IMG/VR virus record: IMGVR_UViG_3300029985_000038
Reading direction: 5' to 3' (one strand)
From: an uncultured virus (IMG/VR IMGVR_UViG_3300029985_000038)
Taxonomy: Duplodnaviria; Heunggongvirae; Uroviricota; Caudoviricetes
DNA length: 20,000 bases
Below the pieces are notes generated by a model that had not been told where the DNA came from, made no database searches, and was given only the letters and a program-made list of their open reading frames with translations. Numbering within the stretch: position 1 is the stretch's first letter; each line of letters begins with the position of its first letter. Of the stretch, positions 699 through 20,000 are shown piece by piece. The translations under genes were made by a program, and so were the position numbers.

Positions 699-1481
699 AT
701 GAGTTATTTGTCTAGCGCAATTGTGTTAAACTGGAATGAATCTCACGTATCAGTCGATACCGTGAGATTACTCCTAAATGAAAATGTTGAAGTTATAGTT
801 GTTGATAATGGATCTGAGGATGGATCTTTTGATAAACTTAAAAAGGAATTCGGCGCATCAGCTAAAGTAATTGGATGTAATGAAAATTACGGTTCTTCAA
901 TTGGCAGGAATTTAGGGATAGAATTAGCTAGTCAAGAGTATACTTTCTTAATTGACGGTGACATTCTATACGTTCCTGGTACTATATCTGCTTATAAAGC
1001 AATATTAAAAGAATTTCCAGAGGCTGCTGTTGTGGGTTATTTTGACGCAGAACATAGAGCTAAAACCGGCTGGGCACATGGAGCTAGAAGTAGAGAAGAA
1101 GCAGATAAAAAAATGTCTGAAATCAAGAACATAGCAGATTGGTATCCTGTGGCGTGGACTCAATATGGACTTTTTAGAACAGCACTCTTAAAGAAGTATA
1201 AATTTGTAACAATTCCTCCATTTAATCAATATGGATATGGATTGGAAGATGATTGGTTCTATAATCAATTGAAAGCAGACGGTCATGAATCGCTCAGTGT
1301 TGATAAGCCTTTTTATTATCATGATGCACACTTTTCCATCAGAGAATTGACTAAAAAGGGTTTGTCTGATATGGCGGTTGAAAGAATGAGAGTTTATTCC
1401 AAACATTGGGGTGTAGGTAATACTTCTGGTGAAAAATTGCTTAAAGGTATTCCTTTATCATTTAAGAGAGTGGCTTACTAA
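699..1481 (+). CDS. Glycosyltransferase family 2 (GT-A fold)
   Basis: IVLNWN, VIVVDNGSEDGS, GRNLGI, FLIDGD (DxD) and GLEDDW; TATAAT at 688-693, 5 nt before the ATG. Confidence 0.9.
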   Translation: MSYLSSAIVLNWNESHVSVDTVRLLLNENVEVIVVDNGSEDGSFDKLKKEFGASAKVIGCNENYGSSIGRNLGIELASQEYTFLIDGDILYVPGTISAYKAILKEFPEAAVVGYFDAEHRAKTGWAHGARSREEADKKMSEIKNIADWYPVAWTQYGLFRTALLKKYKFVTIPPFNQYGYGLEDDWFYNQLKADGHESLSVDKPFYYHDAHFSIRELTKKGLSDMAVERMRVYSKHWGVGNTSGEKLLKGIPLSFKRVAY

Positions 1482-3011: not shown

Positions 3012-3461
3012 ATGATTTTCAAAACAAAACCAATGGATCTTTTAGTTATGGCATCGGAAATTGATCCAACCGAACAAGAGCGAAAACTTAAAGAAGCTAA
3101 AGAATTATTGATTGCTGATGGGTGGGTTAGTTTGAGTACAGAGTGTTCAGAGGACTATTATTTAGTTTACACTGCTGATGGAACCTTTGGTATTTATTGG
3201 CTTGAATGGGATAGTGATTATAGTGATTGGACATGGCAAACGACTTATTATCCTGTTTTTTGGAAGTTTAAACCGCATTTATCTTATAAAGATAATGACT
3301 ATTACAAATACATGGATGAAATGGTAACTCAAGGTCCAGGTTGGATTTTAGTAGCAAAAACTTTACCACAACTTACTGAAAATTCTTTAAAGGCTCATAA
3401 GCTTATGGGCGAATATTGGAGCCTTGAATGTGGTGATGCTGAAGAAGAGGTCGTGGTATGA
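3012..3461 (+). CDS. Hypothetical protein, paralog of 3458-3850
   Basis: 149-aa ORF; TATAAT at 3001-3006; shares AKELLIxDGW, FWxFKP, YYKY and TENS with the next gene. Confidence 0.8.
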   Translation: MIFKTKPMDLLVMASEIDPTEQERKLKEAKELLIADGWVSLSTECSEDYYLVYTADGTFGIYWLEWDSDYSDWTWQTTYYPVFWKFKPHLSYKDNDYYKYMDEMVTQGPGWILVAKTLPQLTENSLKAHKLMGEYWSLECGDAEEEVVV

Positions 3462-3856: not shown

Positions 3857-5080
3857 ATGTTAAAATTTCCAATTTTATACCACAAAGGTAAGGGTGGGGA
3901 AATTCGTGTTTGGTCTGTTTGGTCTGATGGCGATACTGTTTTTACAGAATATGGCGTCGAAAACGGTATTATGCAAATTTCCTCAAAGAAAGTTATTGCT
4001 AAAAATGTAGGTAAGAAATCTGCTACAACAGTAGAAGAACAAGCCGATAAAGAAGCTAAAAGTCAATGGGAGTTCAAAAAGAAACGAAAGTATTCTGAAT
4101 CAGTTGATGCAGCAGAAGAAGTTTTGCAACTTCCTATGTTAGCTAAAGATTACACTCCTGATAAGATTGTTTTCCCAGCTTTAATGCAACCAAAATTAGA
4201 TGGTGTACGTTGTGAAGCGTTTTGGGACGGCGATAGAATTAAACTTATTTCTAGAGCAGGTTTAGAGTGGACTGTACCAAATCATATTGCTGAACAAGTT
4301 GCGAATGTGTTACCTAAAGGTTCACAATTCGACGGAGAGCTATATGTTCATGGTAAGTCATGTCAAACTATCACTTCGTATGTAAAGCGTCTACAACCGC
4401 AAACAGAACTAGTAGAATATCATATCTATGATATGCCAGTGGTTGATGGTGATGATACATTAACTAATGAAGAAAGACATGCTGCTTTAACTAATATTTT
4501 AAAGGATTGTCAAGAAACTCACTTAATTCTAGTGGAAACAATTGAAGTTCATAATGAAAAAGAAATTAAAGATACAGAAGCATATTGGGTATCTTTAGGT
4601 TATGAAGGTGGAATTGTGAGAAATAAGAAAGGTATTTATCGTTTTGGTTATCGTTCTTGGGATTTACAAAAAGTAAAAACCTTTAAAGATGGTGAGTTTG
4701 AAGTGATTGGCTGTAAAGAGGGTGTTGGAAAAATGGTGGGTTGTGCTATTTTTGAATGTCGTAATGATATTACAGACGCAACTTTTGACGTTACTTGTTC
4801 ATGCCCAACAATAGAAAAACAAGAACAATATAAAAATAGACATAAATATATTGGAAAATTATTGACGGTTAAGTATTTTGATAGGACTGATGATGGCATT
4901 CTTCGCTTCCCGGTGGGTAAACTATTTAGAGCAGATGAAGATTTATCTAAAAATCTTATACCTATTAAAGTTTCACTTAATGAGGTATTAGTTAATGCTA
5001 TAATCTCCAAAGCAACAGTAAAGCCAAAGGATAAAACCAAGAAGAAATCTTTGTTTGACACTATTTTAGAAGAAGATTAA
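3857..5080 (+). CDS. lig: ATP-dependent DNA ligase (phage type)
   Basis: PMLA, motif I QPKLDGVRC (KxDG), FDGELY, YHIYD, GYEGGIVR, LQKVK and C-terminal OB-fold LRFPV. Confidence 0.93.
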   Translation: MLKFPILYHKGKGGEIRVWSVWSDGDTVFTEYGVENGIMQISSKKVIAKNVGKKSATTVEEQADKEAKSQWEFKKKRKYSESVDAAEEVLQLPMLAKDYTPDKIVFPALMQPKLDGVRCEAFWDGDRIKLISRAGLEWTVPNHIAEQVANVLPKGSQFDGELYVHGKSCQTITSYVKRLQPQTELVEYHIYDMPVVDGDDTLTNEERHAALTNILKDCQETHLILVETIEVHNEKEIKDTEAYWVSLGYEGGIVRNKKGIYRFGYRSWDLQKVKTFKDGEFEVIGCKEGVGKMVGCAIFECRNDITDATFDVTCSCPTIEKQEQYKNRHKYIGKLLTVKYFDRTDDGILRFPVGKLFRADEDLSKNLIPIKVSLNEVLVNAIISKATVKPKDKTKKKSLFDTILEED

Positions 5081-7934: not shown

Positions 7935-8639
7935 ATGGTTATACCCAAAACGTTTCATTTTATATGGATCGGTGATCAACTGATGCCTGATTTTGCTAAA
8001 AAAATAATTGGTAGCTGGGTAATGAAACATCCATCTTGGAATCTTGTTATTTGGGATAATAAAAGAGTTGAAAAAACTTTTTTAAAACAAGATTCTACAC
8101 ACTTTATGTTTAATGAACAAGCATATTTAGATTGTCAAATATGGGCACAAAAATCAGATATATTAAGATATGAAATCCTTTTTTGGTTTGGTGGTGTATA
8201 TCTTGATGTTGATGTTTTTTGCTTTAAAAATATAGAAGACATTATTAAAGATGAAAAAGCTTTCACTTGCTGGTCTTATAAACCTATTTATTGTATAGAA
8301 AATGCAATAATTGGAAGTATACCATATACTAAAACAATGTGGAATGCAATACTGGGTGCTGGAAATGGCATAAGACATTGTAAAGATGATGTTTTGCAAT
8401 CTACAGGTCCATATATGTTAAAAACTATATGGACTAATGATGATAATATTAAAAAATTAGATCATGATTACTTTTTAAATCATTTACTCATAAATGATTT
8501 TCTAGATGGTAATATTAATTTATCAAATCACCCAGAAATTCATTCTGTTCATTTTTGTCTTTCATCATGGCACAGTAAAGAACGCTATGATTATCAGTTT
8601 GAAAAAATTAAAAAATTTATTAAAGATGCATATGTATAA
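7935..8639 (+). CDS. Glycosyltransferase, DXD sugar-binding (GT32/Och1-like)
   Basis: IPKTFHFIW, KSDILRYEIL, GGVYLDVD, TGP and a C-terminal H-x4-SW. Confidence 0.9.
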   Translation: MVIPKTFHFIWIGDQLMPDFAKKIIGSWVMKHPSWNLVIWDNKRVEKTFLKQDSTHFMFNEQAYLDCQIWAQKSDILRYEILFWFGGVYLDVDVFCFKNIEDIIKDEKAFTCWSYKPIYCIENAIIGSIPYTKTMWNAILGAGNGIRHCKDDVLQSTGPYMLKTIWTNDDNIKKLDHDYFLNHLLINDFLDGNINLSNHPEIHSVHFCLSSWHSKERYDYQFEKIKKFIKDAYV

Positions 8640-9226: not shown

Positions 9227-9297
9227 TGTGGATTCGTTCAATGGCAGGACCTAACACTTTGAATGTTAGTATTAGAGTTCGAATCTCTGATCCACGG
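9227..9297 (+). tRNA. tRNA-Gln(TTG)
   Basis: Acceptor TGTGGAT/ATCCACG, D-arm GTTC..GGAC, anticodon arm TAACA-CTTTGAA-TGTTA, T-loop TTCGAAT, G73; no encoded CCA. Confidence 0.92.
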
Positions 9298-9306
9298 CGA
9301 GAAAAT

Positions 9307-9406
9307 AGCGGATTCGTATAATGGTTATTATAATGGGCTTTTATTTCCTTTTCTTTAAAAGGGCGTAAGGAACCCACTGATTGGAGTTCGATTCTCTGAT
9401 CCGCTG
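9307..9406 (+). tRNA. tRNA with a 28-nt insert/intron in the anticodon loop (Gln-like body, anticodon uncertain)
   Basis: Acceptor AGCGGAT/ATCCGCT with normal D and T arms. Anticodon stem ATGGG/CCCAC encloses 35 nt (9338-9372) instead of 7. Confidence 0.75.
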
Positions 9407-9430
9407 CCGAGAGTTCTTTGAAAACATAAT

Positions 9431-9501
9431 AGCGGGTACTAATGGTTAGGAAAACGACTCTGAATCGTTTTAAAAGAGTTCGATTCTCTTACCCGCCGCC
9501 A
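9431..9501 (+). tRNA. tRNA-Gln(CTG), atypical compact D-arm
   Basis: Acceptor AGCGGGT/ACCCGCC, anticodon arm AAAACGA-CTCTGAA-TCGTTTT, T-arm AAGAG-TTCGATT-CTCTT, G73 plus encoded CCA. Confidence 0.8.
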
Positions 9502-9543
9502 ATTTTAAAGGAAATGATTTGAATTATTTTGAATGTTCAAAGT

Positions 9544-9960
9544 ATGGAATATAAAACTTGTTCAAAATGTCATTTAAAGAAATCTTTAGATTGTTTTAAT
9601 AAAAAAAGTGATAGAATTTTACAAACATATTGTAAAGATTGTCAAAAAAACATATCTCATGAACATTATGTAAAAAATAAACATACTTATTTAAGTAGAA
9701 ATATTAAAAGGAAGATAGATACAAGAGAATTTATAAATAGTTTAAAATTAAAACCATGTGTTGATTGTGGAAATCAATATGATCCGTGTGCAATGGATTT
9801 TGACCATATGGATGATAAAGAATATGATATATCTTCTATGGTAACTGTTGGTTTTTCTAAAAAATCTATTTTGAAAGAAATTTTAAAATGTGAATTAGTA
9901 TGTGCTGTTTGTCATAGAATTAGAACTAAAAAAAGATTAGAGAAAAGTATCTCCCTGTAG
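9544..9960 (+). CDS. HNH-type endonuclease with N-terminal zinc finger, free-standing in the tRNA cluster
   Basis: CSKC...CKDC, then CVDCG...MDFDH...KCELVCAVCHRIRT. Probable start is ATG 9544; the TAG stop overlaps the next tRNA. Confidence 0.8.
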   Translation: MEYKTCSKCHLKKSLDCFNKKSDRILQTYCKDCQKNISHEHYVKNKHTYLSRNIKRKIDTREFINSLKLKPCVDCGNQYDPCAMDFDHMDDKEYDISSMVTVGFSKKSILKEILKCELVCAVCHRIRTKKRLEKSISL

Positions 9961-10023
9961 TTCAGTGGATAGAATACAAGGTTGCGGACCTCGTGGTCGT
10001 GGGTTCGAGTCCCACTGGGGAGG
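9951..10023 (+). tRNA. tRNA-Arg(GCG)
   Basis: Acceptor CTCCCTG/TGGGGAG, D-loop AGTGGATA (A20), anticodon loop TTGCGGA, T-arm GTGGG-TTCGAGT-CCCAC. Confidence 0.88.
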
Positions 10024-10040
10024 CGAGAAAAATTTAATAT

Positions 10041-10118
10041 CTCCGCGTAGTAAGGGTGGTCTACGAAGCCATACACTTTAACGGACTGAAAATGCAGGTT
10101 CGAATCCTGTCGTGGAGG
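10041..10118 (+). tRNA. Non-canonical tRNA-Arg(ACG)-like RNA (no D-arm at the normal position)
   Basis: Acceptor CTCCGCG/CGTGGAG, T-arm GCAGG-TTCGAAT-CCTGT, anticodon arm GTGGT-CTACGAA-GCCAT only 8 nt after the acceptor strand; TAACGGACTGA lies 3' of it. Confidence 0.7.
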
Positions 10119-10129
10119 CGAGATATAAT

Positions 10130-10201
10130 ACCCTTGTGGTCCAATGGATGGGCTTCCGTCTTCGAAACGGATTTATGCTAGTTCGATTCTAGTCAAGGGT
10201 G
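10130..10201 (+). tRNA. tRNA-Arg(TCG)
   Basis: Acceptor ACCCTTG/CAAGGGT, D-loop AATGGAT, anticodon arm TCCGT-CTTCGAA-ACGGA, T-loop TTCGATT. Confidence 0.92.
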
Positions 10202-10212
10202 CGAGAATAAAT

Positions 10213-10299
10213 GCGGTGGTACACCATCGGTCTTCTAAACCGAATAAGTTAACTGGAGTGAGATCATTTCAAATACGGGTTCGAATCCCGTCTTCCGCG
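10213..10299 (+). tRNA. Non-canonical tRNA-Arg(TCT)-like RNA (no D-arm at the normal position)
   Basis: Acceptor GCGGTGG/CTTCCGC, anticodon arm TCGGT-CTTCTAA-ACCGA 7 nt after the acceptor strand, 31-nt region containing TAACTGGAGTGA, T-arm ACGGG-TTCGAAT-CCCGT. Confidence 0.7.
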
Positions 10300-10310
10300 C
10301 CGAGAAAAAT

Positions 10311-10382
10311 TTCCATATATCTCAAGGGATAGAGTCTCAGTTTCCTAAACTGAAGGTATGGGTTCGAATCCCATTATGGAAG
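10311..10382 (+). tRNA. tRNA-Arg(CCT)
   Basis: Acceptor TTCCATA/TATGGAA, anticodon arm TCAGT-TTCCTAA-ACTGA, T-arm ATGGG-TTCGAAT-CCCAT. Confidence 0.9.
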
Positions 10383-10404
10383 CGAGTTTAACTATAATAT
10401 CATT

Positions 10405-11310: not shown

Positions 11311-11796
11311 ATGGTAACAATTGCTAAAGCTTTAAAAATCAAAAACCGTGTCGCAGAGAAATTGCGCAAAGCCGAAAAAGAATTTATGAGAGTCAACTCT
11401 TACAGAGTTGATTTAGGAGTTGACAATCCCCCAGAAGAAGTTTGGGATAAGCTTGTCTCATTGAGAAGTGATTTGTGGCACTTAAAGTCCGCAATCGCTA
11501 AAGCTAATGCTCCTGTTCAAGATGCCATTTTTGAAATGGCAGAAATAAAAGCTGAGATTAGCTATTTAGGTGGTTTAACAACCACAAATGGTAAGGTTGC
11601 AGTAAATACTAATCGTTATGCTGGATTTAGTGAAGATTCAGACAGCGATAAGTTCGTTGAATACAAAGCTTACTTCAACCGCAAAGAAGTTGAAGAGAGA
11701 GTGGAAGATTTGCAAGCCGATTTAGATACTCTTCAAGAGAGATTAGATCACTTCAATAACACCACTAAAATTGATGTTGCATTTTTGGGAGAGTAA
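11311..11796 (+). CDS. DIP1984-like (DUF6847-like) coiled-coil protein
   Basis: SD AGAGGA. N-terminal TIAKALKIKNR, central LKSAIAKAN and C-terminal LDTLQERLDHFNNTT match my recollection of the family pattern; not confirmed by a search. Confidence 0.55.
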   Translation: MVTIAKALKIKNRVAEKLRKAEKEFMRVNSYRVDLGVDNPPEEVWDKLVSLRSDLWHLKSAIAKANAPVQDAIFEMAEIKAEISYLGGLTTTNGKVAVNTNRYAGFSEDSDSDKFVEYKAYFNRKEVEERVEDLQADLDTLQERLDHFNNTTKIDVAFLGE

Positions 11797-11980
11797 GCTT
11801 CGGCTAAAATCCCAATTTCGGATGATTGAATAGCCCCTATTAAACAAAAATTACACTCGGTAATGGTATAGGTCTACGCCATTGATATTCATTGCATTAG
11901 CATGGCGCAGAAAATTTAAATACGAAGAACTCTTAACTCAAAATTTAAGATTTAAAACTTTTCTTGGCTATTATCATCCG
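11785..11980 (+). ncRNA. Candidate structured RNA downstream of the DIP1984-like gene
   Basis: cUUCGg hairpin 11785-11815; 15-bp closing helix 11819-11835/11966-11980; internal hairpins 11836-11872 and 11877-11907; 7-nt repeats 11928-11962. Confidence 0.65.
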
Positions 11981-11983
11981 TCG

Positions 11984-13246
11984 CGATAATTCTTTAAATT
12001 AAAGAATTTAAAGAAGGAATATTTTAATATCATATAGTATATAATTATGTGATAACAGATATTAAAGTAAGATTATATACAAACAAGGATCAATATAAAT
12101 CATTATTGAATTCTTTGTTGTGCTTTAATAAAATATGTAATTATATTTCTAATCAATCTTTTATTCACGGAAATGTAAAAAATAAAACTATATTGCATAA
12201 AATTACTTATAATTTAACTCGTGAGAATTTAAAAGAAGCAGATTCTCAGGTTACAATTAGAGCTATATCTAGAGTTGCAGATTCTTATAAGGTTTCTGTG
12301 CCTATTCAAGAAATTTTAAATAAAAAACGTATAATTAAAGGATTAAAACCGAAAGAAATAAAACCTAATTATTTTAAGCCAATTGCATCTATGGAATTGG
12401 ATAAATGGACAATGAGGTTTTTACAAATAAATAAATTATCTTTATGGTCGCCAGATGGAAGAATTCATGTCGATTATTCTATTCCTGATTATTTCAAATC
12501 TAGATTCAATAAAGATAAAATCAAGATGGCTAAATTGGTCTTGCAAAATGGTAAATTTTGGCTTCATTGCTCTATTGAAGAAAATGAACCAGAATTACAA
12601 GATCATATAGGATTTTTAGGAATTGATCAAGGTCAAGTTTATTTAGTGTCTGACTCCGAAGGAGAACAATATGAAGGCAAGACATTACAAAAGATAAGCA
12701 ATAAATATAAAACAAGAAGAGAATCATTACAAAAAAGTAAGAAAGCTAAGAAAACGAGAGCTAAAGCTAGAGCTTGGAAAAAATTAAGCAAGAAAGAATC
12801 TAGATTTAGACAAGATGTTAATCATCAAATAAGTAAAAGAATTGTTCAAAAAGCGAAAAACTTAAAGCAATGTATCGTCTTAGAAGACTTAAACGACTTC
12901 TTTGAAGATATAAAAGTTAGGCGTGAGAATAAATTTATGAGAAAATCTTGGGCATTCGCCCAACTAATCTTCTACATTCAATATAAAGCATTAAGAGAAG
13001 GAATAAGATGTATATTAGTTAACCCAGCTTATACCTCTCAACAATGCTATAATTGTAGATATTGTGATTCGAAGAATCGCAAATCACAAAGTATATTTGA
13101 ATGTATCAAATGTGGGTATATAAATAATGCAGATATTAATGCTGCCCTAAATATTGCCCTCAAGGGCAAATGTCAATTGTCCTATAGTTCGACAGCGGAA
13201 GCTGTTTAGAATAAATTAAACGAAAGTTTTATGAATTGATCCGTCG
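11984..13246 (+). mobile_element. tnpB-only IS200/IS605-derived element
   Basis: tnpB plus predicted omegaRNA, no tnpA. ATCCGTCG occurs at both sides (11976-11983 and 13239-13246); 10-bp inverted repeat at 11988-12008. Confidence 0.6.
12049..13209 (+). CDS. tnpB: RNA-guided endonuclease TnpB
   Basis: RuvC-I LGIDQG, RuvC-II IVLEDL, NPAYTSQQCYNC...CIKC zinc finger, RuvC-III NADINAALNI; D-E-D triad intact; 386 aa. Confidence 0.93.
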   Translation: MITDIKVRLYTNKDQYKSLLNSLLCFNKICNYISNQSFIHGNVKNKTILHKITYNLTRENLKEADSQVTIRAISRVADSYKVSVPIQEILNKKRIIKGLKPKEIKPNYFKPIASMELDKWTMRFLQINKLSLWSPDGRIHVDYSIPDYFKSRFNKDKIKMAKLVLQNGKFWLHCSIEENEPELQDHIGFLGIDQGQVYLVSDSEGEQYEGKTLQKISNKYKTRRESLQKSKKAKKTRAKARAWKKLSKKESRFRQDVNHQISKRIVQKAKNLKQCIVLEDLNDFFEDIKVRRENKFMRKSWAFAQLIFYIQYKALREGIRCILVNPAYTSQQCYNCRYCDSKNRKSQSIFECIKCGYINNADINAALNIALKGKCQLSYSSTAEAV

Positions 13247-13260
13247 AGTAATAATACTCG
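13150..13260 (+). ncRNA. Predicted TnpB omegaRNA (scaffold ends at 13240, guide from 13241); 5' end approximate
   Basis: Hairpin GGGCAA-ATGTCAA-TTGTCC (13164-13182) whose loop GTCAA can pair with TTGAT (13236-13240); GNRA hairpins ACAGC-GGAA-GCTGT and AAAC-GAAA-GTTT; overlaps the tnpB 3' end as is typical. Confidence 0.65.
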
Positions 13261-13280
13261 AAAATACTCTATAATATATT

Positions 13281-13646
13281 ATGAATAATTACCAAATGCC
13301 ACCACTTCCACCTAGTAATCATCGCGCTAACGCGATAGAATACGTTAAAGATCACACAGATGTTTTTGTTGATGCCTATTATGATCAATTGAAATATGTT
13401 GGTAAATTACTAGACAAACTTACTCCTGTTGATGCGGAAATGTGTCCTGGTCACACATTTGAGAGTGATTTGCTGTTGTTAGAAAAAGAACATGGAATAA
13501 AGCGTGATGTTGTTGCGGCAAAATGGAAAACTTTAATTGATCTTTATCCATTCATTACTGGTAAACCTTATTATGTGGTAGTTTATGAGGAAATTGGATT
13601 TGCTGTCATAAGCGATTATGCCTTAAAAAATATAGTGGTTAGTTAA
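13281..13646 (+). CDS. Hypothetical protein, probable paralog of 13647-13988
   Basis: TATAAT at 13270-13275; shares LExxxG...LxxxxxxIxGxP...ExxGxxVI with the next gene. Confidence 0.75.
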   Translation: MNNYQMPPLPPSNHRANAIEYVKDHTDVFVDAYYDQLKYVGKLLDKLTPVDAEMCPGHTFESDLLLLEKEHGIKRDVVAAKWKTLIDLYPFITGKPYYVVVYEEIGFAVISDYALKNIVVS

Positions 13647-19324: not shown

Positions 19325-20000
19325 ATGACTCAAGAACTAACCAAAGAAATCGAAGAAATTATCAAATCACAAAATCTTAATTGTTCAGTAAAACAATTCA
19401 AAGAAAAAGTTGATTGGTATTCTATTTCACAATATCAAAAATTATCAGAACAATTTATTGAACAATTCAAAGAAAAAGTTGATTGGTATTATATTTCAAA
19501 ACATCAAAAATTATCAGAACAATTTATTGAACAATTCAAAGAAAAAGTTGATTGGTATTCTATTTCAATATATCAAAAATTATCAGAACAATTTATTGAA
19601 CAATTCAAAGAAAAAGTTGATTGGATTTATATTTCAAAACATCAAAAATTATCAGAACAATTTATTGAACAATTCAAAGAAAAAGTTGATTGGTATTCTA
19701 TTTTACAATATCAAAAATTATCAGAACAATTTATTGAACAATTCAAAGAAAAAGTTAATTGGAATTTTATTTCAATATATCAAAAATTATCAGAACAATT
19801 TATTGAACAATTCAAAGAAAAAGTTGATTGGTATTATATTTCAAAACATCAAAAATTATCAGAACAATTTATTGAACAATTCAAAGAAAAAGTTGATTGG
19901 AATTATATTTCAAAACATCAAAAATTATCAGAACAATTTATTGAACAATTCAAAGAAAAAGTTGATTGGTATTCTATTTTAATGTGTCAAAAATTATCAG
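19325..20000 (+). CDS. Tryptophan-repeat protein (23-aa repeats), 3'-truncated by the window edge
   Basis: ATG 19325 with TATACT 6 nt upstream. Frame reads MTQELTKEIEE...(QFKEKVDWxxIxxxQKLSEQFIE)n and stays open to 20000; missing from the ORF track because it has no stop in the window. Confidence 0.85.
   Translation, partial: MTQELTKEIEEIIKSQNLNCSVKQFKEKVDWYSISQYQKLSEQFIEQFKEKVDWYYISKHQKLSEQFIEQFKEKVDWYSISIYQKLSEQFIEQFKEKVDWIYISKHQKLSEQFIEQFKEKVDWYSILQYQKLSEQFIEQFKEKVNWNFISIYQKLSEQFIEQFKEKVDWYYISKHQKLSEQFIEQFKEKVDWNYISKHQKLSEQFIEQFKEKVDWYSILMCQKLS
19393..20000 (+). repeat. 69-bp coding tandem repeat, about 9 copies visible
   Basis: TGATTGG/TAATTGG recurs at 19411, 19480, 19549, 19618, 19687, 19756, 19825, 19894 and 19963. 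Confidence 0.95.

Follow-up and report, generated by a model that had tools for sequence, protein, structure and literature searches.

A single transposase-less TnpB gene lies between two phage genes in the 20,000-nucleotide stretch of uncultured Caudoviricetes DNA analysed here (IMG/VR record IMGVR_UViG_3300029985_000038; the whole stretch is called the window below). We consider it probable, at roughly 0.6, that this gene and its ends form a tnpB-only IS200/IS605 element of the IS1341 type, resident in a 521-kb peat phage and aimed at its own element-free site. As such it adds an ordinary example to the transposase-less TnpB elements already known from phages, where TnpB has been noted as frequent (PMC12607003). 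The source genome is phage-like and very large: the window's TnpB is recorded from a contig of 521,591 bp, and the DNA of the window is present in peat metagenome runs. The element spans 1,263 bp (11978–13240), or 1,257 bp if its first six bases are a target duplication, in which case the element proper starts at 11984. All features are collected in Table 1.

The encoded protein is, by sequence, an intact TnpB. Its open reading frame (ORF) matches Pfam families PF07282 (1.5e-19) and PF01385 (2e-10), both above the curated cut-offs and between them covering OrfB_IS605 and Cas12f1-like/zinc-ribbon domains, and phrog_506 of the PHROGs collection at 1.7e-45. When the protein is aligned with its six closest relatives (alignment A1), residues D193, E279, C333, C336, C352 and C355 are invariant. 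In a comparison with the solved Cas12f structure 9nzq, GIDQG, VLEDL and NADINAA fall on its catalytic motifs, and the RuvC D/E/D residues and both CxxC pairs align with solved Cas12f/TnpB chains, which bears out the claim of the initial annotation that this TnpB is intact. A nuclease-dead regulator of the TldR-like kind is ruled out by the same intact catalytic residues. ISDra2 TnpB aligns to the window protein with 28 bits only, and identity is 25–43% to all relatives whose DNA was compared; protein relatives of 51–82% are also known. The closest relative, P0126/P0003, encoded on a 16,689-bp contig, is 81% identical, is truncated at both ends and is missing the third catalytic aspartate. Neither a Y1 transposase nor a serine recombinase was found within the element, nor in the remaining window ORFs of at least 50 amino acids that were scanned (27 by PHROGs, 23 by Pfam), so the description of the element as transposase-less holds for the 20-kb window.

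Where does the element begin and end? The ends were placed with at least 80 metagenome loci, in which TnpB is 28–43% identical among the matches listed, together with one jumbo-phage copy. Copies of one family in different contexts lose their likeness immediately beyond a G+C-rich hairpin and its trailing nnGTTGAC (or ATGAC/TTGAT), and a pattern scan found 22 relatives that end in a hairpin plus TTGAC, TTGAT or ATGAC. On the left, the shared sequence starts at TCAC in all three copies of the L009/L010/L011 family and in all three of the L040/L046/L052 family, and TCAT stands at the left junction in L021, L080 and L026/L028. The order of left-flank target motif (TAM), short linker, hairpin and GGAGGAA-like motif is common to the relatives, and the window has the same layout. 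The TAM of AmaTnpB is known experimentally to be TCAC (PMC10278001). The TCAT-like TAM proposed earlier for the window fits all of this; for the element of the window, which is known in one copy, insertion 3' of TCAT rests on analogy with these relatives. The junction motifs on which the initial annotation was built (TCAT, TTGAT, the repeats and the hairpin) can all be read in the sequence at the places given for them. The right-end hairpin is imperfect (AAAC-GAAA-GTTT, 13218–13229) and unlike the left-end hairpin, whereas in relatives the two are near-identical. A 378-kb IMG/VR phage that CheckV rates complete carries a TnpB reported to be 41% identical to that of the window (L093; G001:C1:335386-336420); its right end is likewise a hairpin plus TAGTTGAC, and the stop codon of its TnpB falls within this terminus.

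The right end also holds the guide RNA (omegaRNA) scaffold. A covariance model, R1, was built from the right ends of 18 distant relatives, with the window excluded, and was searched against the whole window on both strands with filters off. Its best match covers the full model at 13162–13240, with 15.4 bits and a rough E-value of 0.0027; the next match has an E-value of 0.1. In the alignment of the 18 relatives the core consists, in order, of a hairpin GGGCnG...CnGCC with GTCAAC in its loop, a variable hairpin, CAAGC, a terminal hairpin and TAGTTGAC. The loop and the terminus form a pseudoknot: across 20 sequences (alignment A4) the six-pair helix GTCAAy/rTTGAC is 95.8% paired, with compensatory changes at two pairs. 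In the window this pseudoknot (13172–13178 with 13234–13240) is kept through a C-G to U-A change and a terminal G-U. As far as sequence can tell, its preservation through compensatory changes argues for continued constraint. The end of the R1 match and the covarying pseudoknot place the scaffold end at 13240 and the start of the guide at 13241. The initial annotation had put the scaffold end at the same base, and it is now supported by a model that does not include the window. The second R1 match, on the minus strand at 11392–11434, falls on an 8-bp inverted repeat, GTCAACTC/GAGTTGAC, within ORF 11311–11796 and is probably due to chance.

From these parts we infer how the element may work. It would have been inserted 3' of TCAT in an intergenic region of the phage and would be transcribed through tnpB. 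The conserved omegaRNA core would then form from the last 80 or so bases of the element (13162–13240), with the 16–20 phage bases that follow, from 13241, as guide; it is established that a TnpB guide begins immediately 3' of the right end (PMC8612924; PMC10690162). The TnpB-omegaRNA complex would cut genomes in which TCAT is directly followed by CCGTCGAGTAATAATA, which is the element-free site; an element-free relative would read TCAT and then CCGTCGAGTAAT. Such a site might be met in a co-infecting relative, or be left behind where a transposase acting in trans had excised the element, and repair from the filled copy would restore the element, by homing or retention. TnpB-driven retention and homing into co-infecting phages or plasmids are in print (PMC13565253; PMC10690162), and a role in homing or phage competition, as the initial annotation suggested, is a reasonable, plausible and already published idea for this sequence.

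How would such an element tell its own locus from its target? The filled allele would be spared at both junctions: the left one agrees with the guide over just six bases, and the right one offers TGAT in place of the required TCAT. A search of the window with the 25-base pattern of TAM and target (TCAT and 21 bases of right flank) gives a single near match, the right junction, with TGAT for TCAT. Across the clade, too, the TAM (TTCAC) and the right-end terminus (GTTGAC) differ by one base. The initial annotation gave weight to the match between guide and reconstructed empty site. The match is present, but it is true by construction for any TnpB element: the guide is defined as the right flank, and joining left flank to right flank is what defines the empty site, so the match carries no information.

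Several observations weigh against a mobile or homing element. A single copy is known, and no TnpA is encoded in the 20 kb. The dissimilar end hairpins may no longer be transposase substrates, and a truncated relative such as the one of 81% identity is typical of the decay of such elements. The scaffold match scores only 15.4 bits, with an E-value that is roughly calibrated. The 24-base reconstructed empty site has no match in viral contigs. In the contigs of all four peat runs the site is filled, 100% identical and free of joints across the element, at a low depth that could hide rare empty alleles. Finally, the six-base repeat described below contradicts the rule that the family does not duplicate its target (PMC7290912).

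Two of the peat contigs bridge the junctions of the filled site, X4 the left one (11685–12040) and X2 the right one (12070–13478). Comparisons beyond these runs returned little. The two flanking proteins matched no locus and one locus in viral contigs, and the single locus, L001, matches 22 residues only; the 378-kb phage behind it has no homologue of the upstream gene. TnpB and P0006 found nothing in viral contigs, and the phage collection gave no DNA match to the window. The downstream gene has one near relative, P0137 (88% identical), on a contig of 4.8 kb (4,834 bp). A separate 2,963-base contig in runs X1 and X2 matches 12793–12825 of tnpB over 33 bases with two differences and then diverges, and this partial match indicates that a second, different tnpB is present in the same samples.

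One alternative is a passive passenger. On this account the element entered the phage once, by transposition from a host copy with TnpA acting in trans, and TnpB and its RNA now have no effect that matters for the phage or for the spread of the element. The single copy and the lack of TnpA in the window agree with it, as do the unlike end hairpins, the truncated nearest relative and the invariance of the filled allele in 4/4 runs, which shows no sign of turnover; TnpB genes are moreover common in phage records, 209 of which match. Against it stand an ORF that is fully intact in all catalytic and zinc residues and a scaffold pseudoknot that is preserved by compensatory changes. Two findings also argue against the element having come very recently from a typical host copy: its G+C content (0.279 over 12049–13240) is below the value of about 0.33 in both phage flanks, and no close bacterial relative was found, a scan of the genome collection with the 81% relative giving distant matches only, the best being 28–52% over short parts. 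We regard the passenger account as possible but on balance doubtful.

A further possibility shares the scaffold, the pseudoknot and the distinction of self from target with the homing element that we favour. TnpB might destroy related phages that lack the element instead of converting them, a benefit to carriers in mixed infections that is on record for some free-standing homing endonucleases. Homing endonucleases are described as killing competitor phages too divergent for conversion (PMC13565253). Yet no competitors are known to carry the target, and mutation could readily erase a single target of 20 non-coding bases. We think competition of this kind very unlikely.

The one unexpected item is a short repeat at the junctions, and it is the part of this analysis that may interest transposon specialists. 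The 8-base sequence ATCCGTCG occurs twice in the 20 kb, both strands counted, and only at the two junctions; 0.10 occurrences are expected, and 2 of 200 shuffled sequences reach two. Beyond it the two junctions differ, with CGATAATT after the left copy and AGTAATAA after the right one; the match thus comprises eight bases, two from TCAT/TGAT and the six bases CCGTCG. The IS200/IS605 family is held to insert without target duplication (PMC7290912; PMC10690162). The window departs from this rule, as the six bases after its TAM are the six after its right end.

Is the window alone in this? Right ends were called with R1, which gave 75 matches in 81 sources; 69 listed right ends and the window were taken further. 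Loci were dropped if the TnpB N-terminus was not found or if there were fewer than 80 bases upstream or fewer than 10 downstream, which left 55 loci, the window included. An upstream TCAY followed by bases that recur after the right end is present in five of the 55, namely the window, L047, L073, L017 and L027, with 6, 6, 6, 6 and 8 bases, and in each the identity ends abruptly. The remaining 50 loci have 0–3 matching bases, and none has four or five. When flanks were permuted among loci (2,000 permutations), a mean of 0.08 loci and a maximum of two reached six bases. The four other repeat-bearing loci are unrelated metagenome contigs of the same TnpB clade. No repeat was found in the multi-copy families L009/10/11 and L040. 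It is likewise absent from the three full copies of a Fervidicola TnpB family (L082–L091, with a TTAC TAM), in which none of six right flanks resembles the start of the left end. The spacer from TCAC to the conserved left end is about 7–8 bases longer in L027 than in its relative L023, the TAM of which is uncertain; the longer spacer fits an addition of bases. At two further loci right-flank bases recur upstream of tnpB in places that are not beside TCAY: nine bases in L053 (3415–3423 and 4539–4547), with the upstream copy between the left-end hairpin and the start codon, and seven in L008 (1921–1927 and 3106–3112).

The recurrence of the repeat in unrelated contexts makes it look mechanistic. 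The initial annotation had proposed that the six bases were kept to preserve an RNA helix next to the insertion, and the same arrangement of TAM and 6–8-base repeat in four unrelated contigs of the clade weakens that proposal. The six-base repeat would instead be a by-product of insertion that recurs in the clade, not an adaptation to the neighbouring structure. Most simply, the TAM-side repeat is a by-product of some insertions, or else reflects a site preference. Such a footprint would result if the nicked 3'-OH of the target were extended before strand transfer took place. The portions of the TnpB literature consulted, which are not a full search of the field, do not mention a TAM-side repeat of this kind.

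We put forward a more specific idea tentatively, and think it unlikely as a whole. Part of the insertions in this clade (5/55 loci) may duplicate 6–8 target bases adjacent to the TAM, perhaps by polymerase extension of a transposase-made 3'-OH before strand transfer. The left junction would then carry the TAM and a seed match of 6–8 bases to the element's own guide, and the TnpB-omegaRNA complex might bind there without cutting, for example damping its own expression or blocking excision.

The six bases could also mean that CCGTCG on the right is not original phage DNA. It might be the relic of a tandem copy or of a circle junction since deleted, or the right end might run to 13246. The naive site would in that case lack CCGTCG, and no empty allele in nature would be matched by the guide. 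In favour of this, the six bases that follow the right end are those with which the element begins, as a junction of right end to left end would look, and the resident TAM remains usable for a second insertion. Beyond the six bases, the left end and the right flank show no significant similarity (p about 0.05, in a different and offset alignment), and on this ground we reject the tandem-copy relic. Repeated clean deletion would also be an odd way to arrive at four other loci with repeats of 6, 6, 6 and 8 bases and an abrupt end, and TTGAY is where scaffold and pseudoknot stop in every relative. We consider this reading of CCGTCG very improbable.

The site into which the element is inserted was thought to be a functionally constrained RNA. 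The minimum-free-energy fold of 11797–11990 holds a closing helix, CGGATGAT/ATCATCCG, together with AATAGCC/GGCTATT, and the computed fold of the empty site retains the closing helix, followed by the hairpin at 13244–13261. The statistics of the upstream fold are weak. Its z-score is -1.62 against dinucleotide shuffles, 12 of 200 of which fold as well, and -3.1 against a mononucleotide control. At least 15 other stretches of 162 bases within the 20 kb have an end duplex as strong as, or stronger than, the closing duplex here (-19.8 kcal/mol). For 11819–11980 there is no Rfam match at the gathering threshold, and the two matches seen at E-values of up to 10 are both above 2; no homologue was found, and the window holds no paralogue. 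The upstream structure predicted by folding may be real but is unproven as an RNA, and functional constraint on it is not supported. The hairpin at 13244–13261 was not called as a terminator. A group I intron or IStron is rejected as the nature of the insertion, as no intron model matches 11600–13500 even at E-values of up to 10.

Among known systems, the IS1341-type elements, with ISDra2 TnpB and AmaTnpB as references, come closest. Like them, the element carries tnpB as its single gene, with OrfB_IS605 and zinc-ribbon domains and the RuvC D/E/D residues, and has short structured ends and a 4-base TAM in the left flank; its omegaRNA scaffold overlaps the 3' end of tnpB and takes the right flank as guide. 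It is unlike them in its residence in a 521-kb phage, its 25–43% identity to the relatives compared at the DNA level, TCAT for TCAC, a right end of TTGAT for TTGAC, dissimilar end hairpins and the six-base repeat beside the TAM. The predicted target is the one in the published concept of TnpB retention and homing, the element-free allele made of TAM and right flank (PMC10690162; PMC13565253; 10.1101/2023.03.14.532601), although no TnpA partner is known for the window copy. Free-standing homing endonuclease genes, such as T4 Seg/Mob and those of intronless homing, are likewise selfish nuclease genes between genes of a large phage. Recognition here would be by RNA instead of protein, and self would be told by the presence or absence of the element, whereas free-standing homing endonucleases are described as telling it by substitutions in nearby genes (PMC13565253). 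The TnpB genes of the IS607 family and of IStrons are also paired with omegaRNA and also occur in phages. IS607 ends are described as lacking hairpins and having a GG core (PMC10690162), in contrast to the hairpin ends and TCAY TAM of the clade studied here; with these features in the relatives and no recombinase in the window, IS607 is rejected.

The element is wedged into an intergenic region of about 220 bases. ORFs around it match phage DNA ligase, SbcD-like exonuclease, PRPP synthase, nicotinamide phosphoribosyltransferase, glycosyltransferases and RNase T-like exonuclease; ORF 11311–11796 is without homologues. No obvious Shine-Dalgarno sequence precedes the start codons of tnpB or of the next gene. 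Among the tRNAs of the window, 2 kb from the element, sits an HNH endonuclease ORF (9529–9957), which recalls the free-standing endonucleases of T4-type tRNA regions; one tRNA match, at 9307–9406, is unusually long with 100 bases. One of four glycosyltransferase-like genes in the window, ORF 7935–8639, contains a DXD glycosyltransferase sugar-binding region (PF04488, 2.8e-16) and weakly matches the TcdA/TcdB glycosyltransferase domain family (PF12919, 7.6e-06 for the whole protein, with no single stretch that passes). Tandem repeats with a period of 69 bases and 93–96% likeness occupy 19392–20000 and run off the window; the array lies inside an ORF that starts at 19325 and belongs to phrog_3532, of unknown function.

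Table 1. Features of the TnpB element and its surroundings, in window coordinates unless a locus is named
Feature	Coordinates	Strand	Details
tRNA cluster	9227–10383		7 Rfam tRNA matches, 4 also called by ARAGORN
Predicted four-way structure, RNA status unproven	11819–11980	+	15-bp closing helix; from folds
Left-flank target motif (TAM) TCAT	11974–11977	+	Nearest TCAY upstream of the left-end hairpin
8-base direct repeat ATCCGTCG, left copy	11976–11983	+	
Element left end	11978–12048	+	10-base linker CCGTCGCGAT, then hairpin, then AAGGAAT motif
Left-end hairpin	11988–12008	+	Perfect, 9 bp, AATTCTTTA-AAT-TAAAGAATT
tnpB	12049–13209	+	386 aa, GTG start; intact RuvC D193/E279/D (NADINAA) and zinc-ribbon cysteines
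Conserved 3' core of omegaRNA scaffold and element right end	13162–13240	+	R1 match; overlaps the last 48 bases of tnpB
Pseudoknot 5' arm GTCAATT	13172–13178	+	In the loop of hairpin GGGCAA...TTGTCC
Pseudoknot 3' arm AATTGAT	13234–13240	+	Last bases of the scaffold and right end
Right end TTGAT	13236–13240	+	Read in the sequence
8-base direct repeat ATCCGTCG, right copy	13239–13246	+	
Predicted guide and target (right flank) CCGTCGAGTAATAATACTCG	13241–13260	+	First bases after the scaffold end
7-bp hairpin TCGAGTA-ATAA-TACTCGA	13244–13261	+	Phage intergenic DNA; no T-run on either strand
Repeats after TCAC and after right end	L047:89–98 and 1296–1301		
Repeats after TCAC and after right end	L073:1945–1954 and 3162–3167		
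Repeats after TCAC and after right end	L017:2410–2419 and 3872–3877		
Repeats after TCAC and after right end	L027:2551–2562 and 3874–3881		

The TAM, the scaffold end and the 20-base target of this phage element are now pinned by independent evidence, and the practical value of this is that a cleavage or homing test can be designed directly. For the family as a whole the repeat beside the TAM may matter more widely. If it is a true insertion footprint, it would amend the no-duplication rule for part of the IS200/IS605 family, and the left junction of each element inserted in this way would gain a seed-matched copy of the element's own target.

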